Positions 16,647-20,534 of a DNA stretch of 20,534 bases are shown piece by piece. This DNA is from a virus. Taxonomy: Duplodnaviria > Heunggongvirae > Uroviricota > Caudoviricetes. The stretch spans positions 1-20,534 of IMG/VR virus record IMGVR_UViG_2718218127_000002; one strand, written 5' to 3'. Each line of letters starts with the position of its first letter. Position 1 is the stretch's first letter. A program made the translations under genes and the position numbers. The notes under the pieces are model-generated. The model was not told the DNA's origin. It made no database searches and worked only from the letters and a program-made list of their open reading frames with translations.

Positions 16647-17156
16647 TCACAGCAAACCGAATGAAGCACCGAGGCCAGTCACGGTATCAACTGCATTCGC
16701 CATCGCAGGATTAGCCTGTAAACGGGCCTGCAATGAAACAGCGGCCAGCGCCATCAGTCGTGTTACAGAGTTAATGCTGCTGATAGCATCACGACGACCT
16801 GCACTGGTTTTTACATCGCCAGATACCGCACCTGCAGCAACACGCCCGATCTCTGCGGTTGCACTCATGACGTAATGCGGTAGTTTCTCTTTTGCCACCT
16901 CATTAATCGGAACACATGGCAGACAATGAATCTGTGCCAGAAAACCATCTACCAGCGTTGAATCTTCAGTCAGATCGGTAAGCAACCAAATTTCTGGTGC
17001 GGTTAATAAATGAGGTTGAGCTGGGTTCAGTTTGTTCCGCAGAATCTGCACATTCATGCCTGCACGTTCTGCCAGTTGCACCAGATTGTGGCGCAGTGCG
17101 AATGCACGACAGGCTTCATCAAAATGTGGATGTTTGGAAACTTGGTAATCAAACAT
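16647..17156 (-). CDS. P2 gpB-like protein (replication gene B; assignment by position and size)
   Basis: 169 aa from ATG 17156 with GAGGTG SD (MFDYQVSK...); first gene downstream of cox as in P2. Confidence 0.5.
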
Positions 17157-17188
17157 GGTCGACACCTCTGATGTATCCCAAAATGGAA

Positions 17189-17410
17189 CTAGTTGAATAC
17201 AACATTGCAATCAGTAAGTGCATCAACGGTAAGAGCAGCAAGGTTGATCATTACCTTTTCTCTTTTCTTGTCTTTCCGAAGGCGATGCCGAGGGATGCGA
17301 CCGTCAGCCAGCATATCGTTAATTGTGTCGATTGAAAGACCAGTAAGTTCGCTATAACGCTCAATTGTGACATGTGGCGTATTCAGGGTTATTGAAATGT
17401 TAGGGGTCAT
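17189..17410 (-). CDS. cox: Cox-like excisionase/early regulator
   Basis: 73-aa basic protein divergent from the repressor gene; [28 protein letters not shown] resembles the DNA-binding region of phage Cox-family proteins; AGGAGA SD. Confidence 0.6.
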
Positions 17411-17498
17411 GATGCAACATCTCCTATTGGCTTGTGGTGAGTCAGTTTTAATCGTGGCTTTAACTTCACATTTCGGAGAATGGGATCACAAATCGGTT
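17411..17498. promoter_or_regulatory. Lysis/lysogeny switch region (divergent cox and repressor starts, presumed operators)
   Basis: Intergenic region between divergently oriented cox and repressor genes; contains the 10-bp sequence tcacatttcg (17466-17475) repeated at 17515-17524. Confidence 0.45.
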
Positions 17499-18434
17499 AT
17501 GTCAACACATGAAATCACATTTCGCCATGTGGACGAAAAAAAGAAATCCTTAATCATGCAGAATCGCGGAGGGCAATCGGTTATAGATCGGATACTGAAA
17601 GCCTATGGTTTTTCTTCCCGACAAGCATTCTGTAATCACCTAGGTATATCGCAAAGTACAATGGCGAACAGGTATGCCCGTGACACTTTCCCTGCTGATT
17701 GGGTTGTTATCTGTAGCATGGAGACTGGAGTGCCGGTCGAGTGGTTGGCATTTGGCACTGATACCGAGAAGGGAAGCATTACAAATAATGCAGAAAAAAG
17801 TCACAACAATTGTGACAGCAAGCATCAACATCTCAATAGAGAACAAGACATCCAAAATGAGAACTCTTTTACTATTAACCAAGGTGGAAAAGCAGCAATA
17901 GAGCGAATCGTTTTGGCTTATGGATTTAAGACAAGACAAGCTTTAGCTGATCATATTGGTGTATCAAAAAGTACATTAGCCAATCGTTACATGAGAGATA
18001 CCTTTCCTGCTGACTGGATTATTCAATGCTCACTGGAAACCGGTGCTTCATTAACATGGCTAACCACTGGTAACGGGGCAATGTTTGAAAAGCCTCGAAA
18101 CGATACTATCACTATCCCATATCATAAAATAATTGATGGATCTCTTGCTCAAGAAACCTTCTTGACTTTTGACTCTAAGTTGTTAGAAGGAACCTTTCTG
18201 CAACCTTTAGCAGTATTCATTGATGAGGAAATATATATTGTAGAATCAAAATTTAATGAAGTTACTGATGGCAAGTGGCTTGTGAATATTGAAGGGAAAA
18301 TAAGTATCAAAGATTTGACTCGCATACCCGTTGGTATGGTTAAAGTTGTAGGCACTAACGCAAGTTTTGAATGCTTACTTACTGACATTATCGTTTTGGC
18401 AAAATGTAAAAGAGTTTTTACTAAAAATGTATAA
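17499..18434 (+). CDS. Immunity repressor with tandemly duplicated CI-type (phage 186 CI-like) N-terminal DNA-binding domain
   Basis: Two about 63-aa internal repeats (residues encoded at 17568-17756 and 17883-18074) share the pattern GG-x-IxRI-AYGF-RQA-HxG-S-ST-ANRY-RDTFPADW-CS-ETG-WL; divergent from cox. The region upstream of ATG 17499 in the track ORF looks non-coding. Confidence 0.6.
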   Translation: MSTHEITFRHVDEKKKSLIMQNRGGQSVIDRILKAYGFSSRQAFCNHLGISQSTMANRYARDTFPADWVVICSMETGVPVEWLAFGTDTEKGSITNNAEKSHNNCDSKHQHLNREQDIQNENSFTINQGGKAAIERIVLAYGFKTRQALADHIGVSKSTLANRYMRDTFPADWIIQCSLETGASLTWLTTGNGAMFEKPRNDTITIPYHKIIDGSLAQETFLTFDSKLLEGTFLQPLAVFIDEEIYIVESKFNEVTDGKWLVNIEGKISIKDLTRIPVGMVKVVGTNASFECLLTDIIVLAKCKRVFTKNV

Positions 18435-18445
18435 AGAGAAACATC

Positions 18446-19390
18446 ATGACTGAACCAACCAATAAAGATAGCGAAATAAAAAAACACCTATTAGAATTTC
18501 TTGATTCACAGTCTGAAAATATAGCAAAACACTTCTACTCTCATATAAAAGACTTAATAGAAGCAGGAGAGCTTTCTGAAGCTCATAATAACCTAGCGCT
18601 AATTGAAAAATACATAACTAGGCCACCGATGGATGAAGAACCCAATATAAATGAAAATAAAGCCAATAAAAGAAAAAATGTAAAATCACTTGAACCTAAT
18701 AATTATGTAGAACATATAATACAATTAGAAGAACGAAACAGCATATTAACTCTACAGTTAGAGCATTATACTCAGGATCTTAATAGAAAAAACGCAATAA
18801 TCGAAAACAACGTAAAACAAATTAATTCATTGATTAGTGAAAATAAGGAACTCCGTAGCCAAGTACAGCAACAAAGAATCGATGATAAAATCCCCACCTA
18901 TGTTAACGATGTTAAATCAGATCTTGGTAGTGATGACAAACATTTTATATTGATGTCTATTATCTGGTCTATTGCAGGGGTATTTTTTGGCTTCCTTGCA
19001 GTAGTATCTGCTTTTTTTACATTATACATGAACTTAGATTTAAAAAATCTCACTAACCTTCAGTTAATATATATCTTCACGCGAGGATTAGTTGGAATCG
19101 CCATTCTTTCATGGCTATCATATATCTGCCTTAGTAACTCAAAAAAGTACACACATGAATCGATCAGGCGAAAAGATCGTCGACATGCTTTGATGTTTGG
19201 TCAAGTTTTTTTGCAGATATACGGTTCTACAGCAACTAAAGAGGATGCAATAGAAGTCTTTAAGGATTGGAATATTTCAGGTGACTCTGCATTTTCAGGT
19301 CAGACAGAGCAACCACCGAGTTTTGCGTCATTTTTGAATACAATCAAAGACAAAGTTAAAGTAACTGGAAGTGATAAAGAAACAGATTAA
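18446..19390 (+). CDS. Hypothetical coiled-coil protein with two predicted transmembrane helices
   Basis: 314-aa AT-rich ORF 11 nt downstream of the repressor gene; heptad-like N-terminal region and two hydrophobic stretches (ILMSIIWSIAGVFFGFLAVVSAFF and GLVGIAILSWLSYICL). Confidence 0.65.
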   Translation: MTEPTNKDSEIKKHLLEFLDSQSENIAKHFYSHIKDLIEAGELSEAHNNLALIEKYITRPPMDEEPNINENKANKRKNVKSLEPNNYVEHIIQLEERNSILTLQLEHYTQDLNRKNAIIENNVKQINSLISENKELRSQVQQQRIDDKIPTYVNDVKSDLGSDDKHFILMSIIWSIAGVFFGFLAVVSAFFTLYMNLDLKNLTNLQLIYIFTRGLVGIAILSWLSYICLSNSKKYTHESIRRKDRRHALMFGQVFLQIYGSTATKEDAIEVFKDWNISGDSAFSGQTEQPPSFASFLNTIKDKVKVTGSDKETD

Positions 19391-19481: not shown

Positions 19482-20534
19482 ATGGCAGTACGAAAACTCA
19501 CCACAGGAAAATGGCTTTGCGAATGTTACCCCGCCGGACGTAGCGGACGCCGTGTGCGTAAACAATTCGCCACCAAAGGCGAAGCACTGGCCTTCGAGCG
19601 ATACACCATGGGGGAAATAGAAGCAAAACCCTGGCTGGGCGAATCAGTGGATCGTCGGACACTGAAAGATATGGTTGAGCTATGGTTCAAATTACATGGC
19701 AAATCTCTTACTGCCGGACAGCATGTCTACAACAAGCTGCTGTTGATGGTTGACGCCTTGGGAAATCCCCTTGCAACTGATCTCACCTCAAAAATGTTTG
19801 CTCACTATCGAGATAAACGCCTGACAGGCGAGATCTACTTCAGCGAGAAATGGAAGAAAGGAGCAAGCCCGGTCACCATTAACCTGGAGCAAAGCTATCT
19901 AAGTAGTGTTTTTAGCGAACTATCCCGTTTGGGCGGATGGTCGTATCCGAACCCACTGGAGAACATGCGAAAATTCACCATCGCAGAAAAAGAGATGGCA
20001 TGGCTTACCCATGAGCAGATTGTTGAATTGCTGGCTGATTGCAAACGTCAGGACCCAATTCTGGCACTGGTAGTTAAGATATGCTTAAGCACAGGCGCAC
20101 GCTGGCGTGAAGCCGTAAATCTTACCCGCTCACAGGTGACCAAATACCGAATTACCTTTGTCAGAACGAAGGGGAAGAAAAACAGAAGCATCCCTATCAG
20201 TAAAGAGCTTTACGAAGAGATCATGGCGCTCGATGGGTTCAATTTCTTCACAGACTGCTATTTTCAATTTTTATCCGTGATGGAAAAAACGTCTATCGTG
20301 CTCCCTCGCGGTCAACTCACACACGTTCTGCGCCATACGTTTGCAGCGCACTTCATGATGTCGGGTGGAAACATTCTGGCCTTACAAAAAATTCTCGGAC
20401 ACCACGATATAAAAATGACTATGCGTTACGCACATCTGGCACCGGATCATCTGGAAACGGCGCTCCGTTTCAATCCTCTGGCAACGCTGCCAAGTGGCGA
20501 CAAAGTGGCGGCAGCGGTTGGCATTACCCCGTAA
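19482..20534 (+). CDS. int: Tyrosine integrase (P2 Int-like)
   Basis: 350 aa from ATG 19482 (MAVRKLTTGKW, like the P2 Int N-terminus MAIKKLDDGRY from memory); catalytic motifs TGARWRE, HVLRHTF and MRYAHL. Confidence 0.85.
   Translation: MAVRKLTTGKWLCECYPAGRSGRRVRKQFATKGEALAFERYTMGEIEAKPWLGESVDRRTLKDMVELWFKLHGKSLTAGQHVYNKLLLMVDALGNPLATDLTSKMFAHYRDKRLTGEIYFSEKWKKGASPVTINLEQSYLSSVFSELSRLGGWSYPNPLENMRKFTIAEKEMAWLTHEQIVELLADCKRQDPILALVVKICLSTGARWREAVNLTRSQVTKYRITFVRTKGKKNRSIPISKELYEEIMALDGFNFFTDCYFQFLSVMEKTSIVLPRGQLTHVLRHTFAAHFMMSGGNILALQKILGHHDIKMTMRYAHLAPDHLETALRFNPLATLPSGDKVAAAVGITP
20495..20516. repeat. Putative att core copy (int-proximal)
   Basis: tggcgacaaagtggcggcagcg, 21/22 identical to 2834-2855; lies within the last 13 codons of int. 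Confidence 0.45.

Follow-up and report, generated by a model that had tools for sequence, protein, structure and literature searches.

A phage CI repressor predicted to join two DNA-binding domains of different ancestry

Why would a phage immunity repressor carry two DNA-binding domains? The CI repressor of coliphage 186 is the textbook alternative to lambda CI, and the wheel model of its action assumes one DNA-binding head per subunit; 186 CI has been described as a wheel assembly that works with three operators at the lytic promoter pR, two turns apart, and with FL and FR sites (PMC3675496; bioRxiv 10.1101/2021.10.29.466366). The DNA analysed here, which we call the window, is the 20,534 nucleotides (nt) of IMG/VR virus record IMGVR_UViG_2718218127_000002 (Caudoviricetes). 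It contains a cI gene (17499..18434, + strand) predicted to encode an immunity repressor 311 amino acids (aa) long with two helix-turn-helix (HTH) domains, D1 and D2, followed by a C-terminal domain (CTD). The original prediction was that the DNA-binding domain had been duplicated within the gene so that one chain could contact two operator half-sites. Our comparisons point instead to two domains from different repressor lineages, and we give about an even chance to the reading that the window CI is a chimeric, dual-specificity repressor of the 186 type in which D1 and D2 recognize different operators.

The predicted layout, two 186 CI-type HTH domains and one C-terminal domain of about 100 aa in one polypeptide, was borne out. 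As expected, the Pfam family of phage CI repressor HTH domains (PF07022, Phage_CI_repr) matched two stretches of the protein (E 3.9e-58), and PF16452 (Phage_CI_C) matched aa 206-304 (E 1.6e-26). A hidden Markov model (HMM) built from both copies placed D1 at aa 24-87 (17568..17759, + strand) and D2 at aa 129-192 (17883..18074, + strand). By its identity to the proteins P0091 and P0119, D1 belongs to a class of single-domain repressors about 207 aa long (the 207 class), with the recognition helix ISQSTMANRYAR and a predicted local distance difference test score (pLDDT) of 75-89. D2, by its identity to the protein P0040, belongs to a class about 198 aa long (the 198 class), with the recognition helix VSKSTLANRYMR. 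Between them lies a linker (aa 88-128; 17760..17882, + strand) that is hypervariable in alignments and in its substitution pattern and is predicted to be disordered. The remaining domain (aa 206-311; 18114..18431, + strand) is predicted to be an oligomerization domain of the 186 CI type from its PF16452 match and its fold. The open reading frame (ORF) runs without frameshift or internal stop from 17367 to 18434 on the + strand, and its in-frame ATG at 17499 gives the 311-aa protein. A frameshift, or two separate genes, was considered and ruled out by this continuous frame, by the two-domain relatives described below and by the presence of the module (at least 80% of a 2.4-kb query) in 115 of 5426 complete E. 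coli genomes.

When modelled by AlphaFold2 with 46 two-domain homologues, the protein had three well-folded domains, with a pLDDT below 50 for residues 89-125 and a predicted template modelling score (pTM) of 0.37. The model gave no fixed arrangement of D1 and D2 and no contact between them, only a 37-residue disordered linker; as modelled, D1, D2 and the CTD are arranged as beads on a string joined by a flexible tether. The modelled CTD superposed on the 186 CI CTD (2FKD) with a template modelling (TM) score of 0.93 and a root-mean-square deviation of 1.5 Å in Foldseek, and D2 together with the CTD aligned with residues 10-186 of 186 CI (2FJR; phmmer E 2.2e-28). Pfam returned no match of the window CI to PF00717 (Peptidase S24), indicating that this is not a self-cleaving repressor of the LexA or lambda CI type, and the structural resemblance of its CTD to LexA CTDs was only distant (E 2e-6).

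Where the two domains came from can be read from their relatives. D1 and D2 are identical at 37 of 64 residues (58%). Their nucleotides are also 58% identical, third codon positions are 33% identical, and the same codon is used for only 11 of the 37 shared residues. Third positions this divergent, at which synonymous sites are saturated, indicate that the split between D1 and D2 is old; the nucleotide alignment intended to date a duplication thus argues against recent copying within the gene. D1 is 81% identical to the single HTH domain of the 207 class (P0091, P0119) and D2 is 89% identical to that of the 198 class (P0040), and in all 47 two-domain proteins compared each domain is closer to a single-domain class than to its partner. 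The leader of the window CI, 'MSTxxITxRH...IMQNxGGQ', is the 207-class N-terminus, and the residues before D2 ('NENSFTINQGG') correspond to the 198-class N-terminus ('MSTSKYPNEIKINPNQGG'), as though D2 had kept the leader of a once separate 198-class gene. On these grounds we no longer favor an internal duplication. As one block, D2 and the CTD are 61-67% identical to the ~198-aa proteins P0040, P0044 and P0051; the CTD by itself reaches only 30-44% identity to the particular loci of either class that were compared.

The same two ancestries are found in the switch between cI and the divergent apl gene. The window Apl shares 88-89% of its residues with 198-class Apl and 25% with 207-class Apl. 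The apl-proximal half of the switch (17411..17463), presumably with the promoter pL and the Apl sites, is 90-96% identical to the 198 class and unalignable to the 207 class, and the cI-proximal half (17464..17498), taken with the leader, is 77-82% identical to the 207 class over about 100 nt and has no alignment to the 198 class. The suggestion that an AT-rich immunity module had been swapped in therefore holds in part. Recombination has made the locus a mosaic whose 3' part is AT-rich, but the junctions fall within the switch (at about 17463/17464) and within cI and do not enclose an entire immunity module. Likewise, cI is AT-rich as described, but as a gradient within the gene from 0.48 to 0.34: guanine plus cytosine (GC) content declines along cI (D1 0.48, D2 0.41, linker 0.35, CTD 0.34; whole window 0.486). 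A fusion of two lineages, or the insertion of a cassette, accompanied by a chimeric switch is well supported by these comparisons. In the simplest history, a 207-class cassette comprising pR, its operators, the cI start, D1 and the linker would have replaced the pR region and the first four codons of a 198-class cI, and apl and the adjoining half of the switch would be those of the recipient 198-class phage. The 207 class (for example P0091) is thus the apparent parent that supplied D1, the leader, pR and its repeats, and the 198 class (for example P0040) the apparent parent that supplied D2, apl and the apl-side half. In a second group of two-domain loci (L129, L132-L144) D1 comes from another clade, which suggests further independent fusion events.

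Each parent class has one HTH domain and one type of operator, and the operators of the 207 class are present in the window. It contains exactly three exact matches to TCACAWWWCG, all on the + strand and all at pR. The first predicted operator repeat, TCACATTTCG (17466..17475), covers the -10/+1 region of pR; the second, TCACAAATCG (17486..17495), lies 20 bp away in the spacer of pR; and the third, again TCACATTTCG (17515..17524), lies upstream of the -35 element within codons 6-9 of cI, where its DNA is conserved while adjacent codons vary. Their offsets from the start of the domain (-102, -82 and -53) are identical in two-domain loci and in single-domain 207-class loci, so the second domain is not needed for the repeats. 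Across 130 non-identical loci, 30 of the 32 with a 207-type recognition helix in the promoter-proximal domain have at least two upstream TCACAWWWCG sites, compared with 4 of 98 others (Fisher p 8e-23, a value that overstates independence because the loci are related). A TTGTGA-N8-TCACAA inverted repeat is present in L099 and poor in the window. A terminator-like hairpin (TTTCGTCCACATGGCGAAA followed by a T-rich tail; 17520-17538, - strand) overlaps repeat 3 just upstream of the pR -35 element and also occurs in L001.

We predicted the position of pR from a promoter scan of relatives, in which it reads TTGACA-17-TATTCT (10 of 12 positions matching in L001). In the window this places pR at 17477..17505 on the - strand, with the -35 element TTGACA at 17505-17500, a 17-bp spacer and the -10 element at 17482-17477. 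Since three operators lie over pR in 186 (PMC3675496), the predicted promoter sits where a 186-type switch should have it. The same scan found no pR in the window. Position 17482 is G in the window; the IMG/VR copies and every one of the 112 complete E. coli genomes that carry this switch have A there, so the predicted -10 element changes from TATTCT to CATTCT and pR is no longer found by the scan. Either a sequencing error or a mutation that weakens the promoter and keeps the prophage locked in lysogeny could account for this.

The operators of the D2 lineage are different. In the 198 class, the 16-bp palindrome GTNCCCAAWTGGGNAC closely follows the pR -10 element, and a weaker second copy lies within the codons for 'YPNEI'; a 198-class pR fragment carries GTTCCCAATTGGGAAC. 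A 198-type helix is accompanied by an upstream palindrome in 8 of 10 loci compared with 4 of 116 others (p 1e-8). The window CI has the heads of both classes and lacks the main 198-class palindrome at pR. Because the fusion retained the 198-class gene from about codon 5, the second site now falls in linker-coding DNA, 34 nt before D2. A weight matrix trained only on the palindromes of single-domain 198-class loci was run on 45 non-identical two-domain loci, and in 20 of them the best match of the whole ~5.5-kb locus fell within the ~120 nt that encode the linker, nearly always 34 nt upstream of D2. L003 has GTTCCCAATTGAGACC (17.4 bits), L132 has a perfect GTCCCCAATTGGGAAC (24.7 bits), and many relatives carry GTTCCCAATTGAGAYC at this position, around which their sequences are unalignable. 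In the window the corresponding 16 bp, CATCCAAAATGAGAAC (17849..17864, + strand), also 34 nt before D2, score 5.0 bits, below the chance maximum of 10.8, and appear to be a decayed relic of the 198-class operator. About half of the relatives thus retain the ancestral D2 operator within the DNA that encodes the linker, and in the window it has decayed. Palindromes in the window were also considered as D2 sites of the FL/FR kind and rejected, as those at 20486 (7.5 bits) and at 17174 and 17849 (5.0 bits) are below the chance maximum (mean 10.8).

Both DNA-binding domains appear to be maintained. Among 18 diverse genes of the window's group, in which synonymous divergence (pS) is near saturation at 0.68-0.77 except in the leader, the ratio of nonsynonymous to synonymous divergence (pN/pS) was 0.12 for D1 and 0.19 for D2, and 0.79 for the linker, 0.79 for the hinge and 0.61 for the CTD. 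Across 46 proteins, both domains have recognition helices whose residues vary little or not at all, and S156, S158, T159, R163 and Y164 of the D2 helix are invariant. These patterns indicate strong purifying selection on both HTH domains.

Repressors with two HTH domains are not confined to this locus. Of 121 protein clusters (the window and the best 120 clusters at 90% identity), 48 have this layout, with lengths of 290-330 aa and 43-98% identity to the window CI; their sources are Escherichia, Klebsiella, Enterobacter, Citrobacter, Salmonella, Kosakonia and Edwardsiella. At the protein level the window CI is 98% identical to its counterpart in Klebsiella phage ST11-OXA245phi3.1, and the CI of Klebsiella phage 4LV2017 has the two-domain module at 52.7%. 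An exhaustive search with a single-domain query indicated that the whole family is small, with 182 clusters at 50% identity; among the best 150 of these 182, 28 contained two matched stretches, distant lineages included. D1-D2 identity is 30-52% in a distant PSP3-like group and 54-70% in a distant group formed by P0209, P0255 and P0262, and linkers are 25-45 aa in all two-domain lineages. Scanning genome contigs, one genome per species, gave almost only single-domain loci, and the two-domain loci were supplied by the viral collection. We found no description of tandem PF07022 or two-HTH 186-type repressors in a literature search whose coverage of subscription journals was incomplete, so that absence is not proof. 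The layout is real, widespread and apparently undescribed as such, and its presence in the CIs of phage PSP3 and of Klebsiella phages suggests that it is functional in real phages.

Other arrangements of these domains were seen as well. In the distant relatives P0251 and P0252 a LexA-like Peptidase_S24 C-terminus follows two PF07022 domains with 70-73% identity to each other, an arrangement that resembles a true tandem duplication within a self-cleaving repressor. At L124 (1875-3424; also L125 and L131) a single-domain cI (191 aa) lies by the switch and is followed 50 bp downstream by a two-domain cI (307 aa); no TCACAWWWCG site occurs anywhere in the L124 locus. At L149 (2360-3516) an HTH-linker-HTH ORF without a CTD (198 aa) overlaps a normal single-domain cI (187 aa) through ATGA, and this immunity operon thus encodes three HTH domains in all.

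We propose that the CTD of the window CI builds dimers and higher oligomers as in 186 CI. The D1 domains would bind the three pR repeats (17466-17524), shut off apl-cII and the lytic operon and maintain lysogeny. D2 would keep its parental specificity for the 16-bp palindrome GTNCCCAAWTGGGNAC. Where the linker site survives, about 350 bp from pR, D2 could tie that site to pR by looping as the FL and FR sites do in 186. Where the site has decayed, as in the window, D2 might act mainly in trans on the pR of superinfecting 198-class phages and so give immunity to two phage groups. The arrangement at L124, where a two-domain cI stands behind the phage's own single-domain cI without TCACAWWWCG sites, makes a role in trans plausible. 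A wider picture, which we hold tentatively and think rather doubtful as a whole, is that 186-like phages stack HTH heads from heteroimmune relatives on one oligomerizing repressor. This would form a wheel with two specificities that silences pR, loops to the linker operator where it survives and provides immunity against a second group; L124 and L149 would be other stages of this process, and the PSP3-like and S24-type lineages would be convergent.

Several observations weigh against a dual-specificity repressor. The 20.5-kb window has no significant D2-type palindrome, the best match (7.5 bits at 20486) being below the chance maximum of 10.8, and immunity in trans through D2 is a conjecture. 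Neither the repeat scan nor the palindrome scan of the window found distal operators of the 186 FL/FR type, about 300 bp on either side of pR; TCACAWWWCG has no exact match in the window outside pR, and its one-mismatch matches are at chance level (7 compared with 8.95 expected). The pR repeats are direct, not inverted, and are spaced by 20 and 29 bp, an arrangement that does not readily suggest how a dimer would read them. Consensus scans for pL gave no match in the window or in relatives, and the private T-to-C change in the pR -10 element may leave this copy of the switch impaired. The pairing of each domain with an operator is drawn from co-inheritance among related loci on which the motifs themselves were defined. 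The direction of evolution is not provable from a 64-residue neighbor-joining tree, in which some single-domain 207-class sequences nest among the D1s.

These points leave room for other explanations. One, close to the original prediction, is that D1 and D2 of one chain bind adjacent half-sites of each operator and so replace an HTH dimer. The chain does contain two intact HTH domains, the linkers of all two-domain lineages would permit such binding, an asymmetric two-domain reader could account for pR repeats that are direct, and a mycobacteriophage repressor, reported to act as a monomer with two domains on an asymmetric site, provides a precedent (PMC9283540). We nevertheless disfavor this arrangement, and regard it as quite improbable, because single-headed relatives use the same pR repeats: all three repeats recur at identical offsets in 207-class phages with one HTH. 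In addition, the operator of the D2 parent lineage is of another, palindromic kind; D1 and D2 are joined by a long, hypervariable, disordered linker and show no predicted contact; and the oligomerizing CTD has been kept. The proposed fit of one chain to two half-sites in the direct repeats is therefore not supported.

It is also conceivable, although we think it unlikely, that D1 binds the operators alone and that D2 is no longer a sequence-specific binder, serving instead a structural role in CTD folding, dimerization or spacing, or as a docking surface for a Tum-like antirepressor. This would agree with the lack of a significant D2-type operator in the window, with the decay of the relic site in about half of the relatives and with the alignment to 186 CI of D2 and the CTD, originally one contiguous unit. 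It fits poorly with the invariant D2 helix residues (S156, S158, T159, R163 and Y164) and the D2 pN/pS of 0.19, which show more constraint than a scaffold role predicts, and with a relic operator that is well kept, even perfected, in other loci (GTCCCCAATTGGGAAC in L132, 24.7 bits). Finally, the gene could be an annotation artefact or a decaying gene, that is, adjacent or overlapping repressor genes or a pseudogene left by prophage recombination that yields no functional two-domain protein. L149, where a related arrangement is split into an HTH-HTH ORF without a CTD and an overlapping normal cI, and the private mutation in the pR -10 element are what such a history might produce. The uninterrupted frame, the 115 E. 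coli genomes with the module, the layout in 48 of 121 clusters down to about 43% identity under purifying selection, and its occurrence in isolated phages including PSP3 make it extremely improbable here, and for the family as a whole an artefact is already refuted by purifying selection, recurrence and isolated phages.

A dual-specificity repressor of this kind is best seen against known systems. The window CI is a variant of the 186 CI kind and not a new kind of system. It shares with coliphage 186 CI (2FJR, 2FKD) the PF07022 HTH family, the PF16452 CTD fold and the gene order, and, in a possible parallel to the operators of 186, several predicted operators are clustered over the predicted pR with a phasing of about 20 bp between two of them. 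It differs in that 186 CI has one HTH domain in 192 aa, whereas the window CI has two of different lineages in 311 aa joined by a disordered linker of about 40 aa, and in that its operators are direct TCACAWWWCG repeats with no FL/FR-type distal sites found in the window. If a 14-mer wheel of seven dimers forms, it would by analogy display 28 HTH domains rather than 14. Two heads of different ancestry also raise the questions of one repressor with two operator codes, of immunity to two groups, and of new immunity types arising through the exchange of cassettes that hold an operator and its cognate head.

The CI of Salmonella phage PSP3 (AAN08403.1, 286 aa; L163 1501-2361, AY135486), an isolated 186-like phage of the genus Eganvirus, likewise has two PF07022 domains and PF16452 at the same gene position. 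Unlike the window CI it belongs to a different lineage, with D1 and D2 52% identical and a 26-aa linker. P0134 shares 64.5% identity with PSP3 CI and 31.8% with the closely related CI of Klebsiella phage ST11-VIM1phi8.4. We looked in PSP3 for an analogous intragenic operator and found no clear repeat family common to its switch and linker. PSP3 CI has been described only as having 'a longer C-terminal domain' (PMC3448106). The two-HTH proteins are all annotated 'phage repressor protein CI', and with such annotation, immunity-group predictions for P2/186-like prophages of E. coli and Klebsiella that use whole-protein identity would be misleading. The mycobacteriophage repressor noted above is reported to be another immunity repressor with two DNA-contacting domains per chain (PMC9283540); its two domains reportedly differ in fold and bind a single asymmetric site as a monomer, and its sequence is unrelated, whereas the window CI has two paralogous HTH domains and an oligomerization domain, and the evidence points to two operator types. 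P2 C (99 aa; PMC2995052), from a related phage group, is also an immunity repressor and recognizes direct repeats. Unlike the window CI it is a single small domain with no PF07022 or PF16452 match, and P2-type phages lack cII and fil.

The placement of the cI start codon is uncertain. Support for ATG 17499 comes from the relatives, in which it corresponds to a conserved 'MST' start common to both parental single-domain classes; the 198 class has no alternative. The PGAP annotation (WP_001680871.1) uses ATG 17556 on the same strand, giving a protein of 292 aa. Relative L126 lacks the upstream ATG and relative L004 lacks the downstream one, suggesting that either start is usable. The upstream ATG shares bases with the -35 hexamer of pR on the other strand (ATGTCAA/TTGACAT; 17499-17505 in the window and homologous positions in L003-L162), an overlap common to both single-domain classes and the two-domain group. 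The 'MS[TN]' N-terminus is conserved because of it. The N-terminal leader (aa 1-23; 17499..17567, + strand), of the 207-class type by alignment, overlaps both the -35 element and operator repeat 3. Its pS is 0.43 compared with about 0.7 elsewhere in cI, and this low synonymous divergence in the first 23 codons, together with the -35 overlap, suggests that conservation is partly at the DNA level.

The genes around cI were assigned with Pfam, PGAP and PHROG. On the + strand are int, an ORF of unknown function and cI, and on the - strand are a Cox/Apl-like gene (phrog_575), cII (PF06892), fil, a TraR/DksA gene, dam and a replication endonuclease. The Cox/Apl-like gene (17189..17410, - strand), divergent from cI, is predicted to encode a 73-aa excisionase-repressor (phrog_575, Cox-like excisionase and repressor, E 7e-31), and cII (16647..17156, - strand; PGAP coordinates) a lysogeny activator of the 186 type (PF06892, E 4.4e-42). 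This is the 186-type gene order, int and cI with divergent apl, cII and fil, and the P2 C/cox context that had been proposed gives way to a 186-like neighborhood (apl, cII, fil). This 186-like E. coli prophage adjoins rcdA/ybjJ.

Between cI and int the window has a 314-aa ORF (18446-19390, + strand) with a GC content of about 0.30 that matches phrog_2628 (unknown function) and has no PADLOC match. In relatives this slot holds candidate defense genes, a PDC-S20/KAP-NTPase-like protein at L124 and PDC-M11A at L149, and it looks like a variable cargo hotspot. An insertion of ISKox3 in some copies of this prophage was considered for its relevance to cI and set aside because of its position outside cI. 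At L164 (2612-3832) this ISL3-family element lies between the unknown ORF and int and leaves cI untouched, in E. coli WCHEC020031 and in seven other listed genomes.

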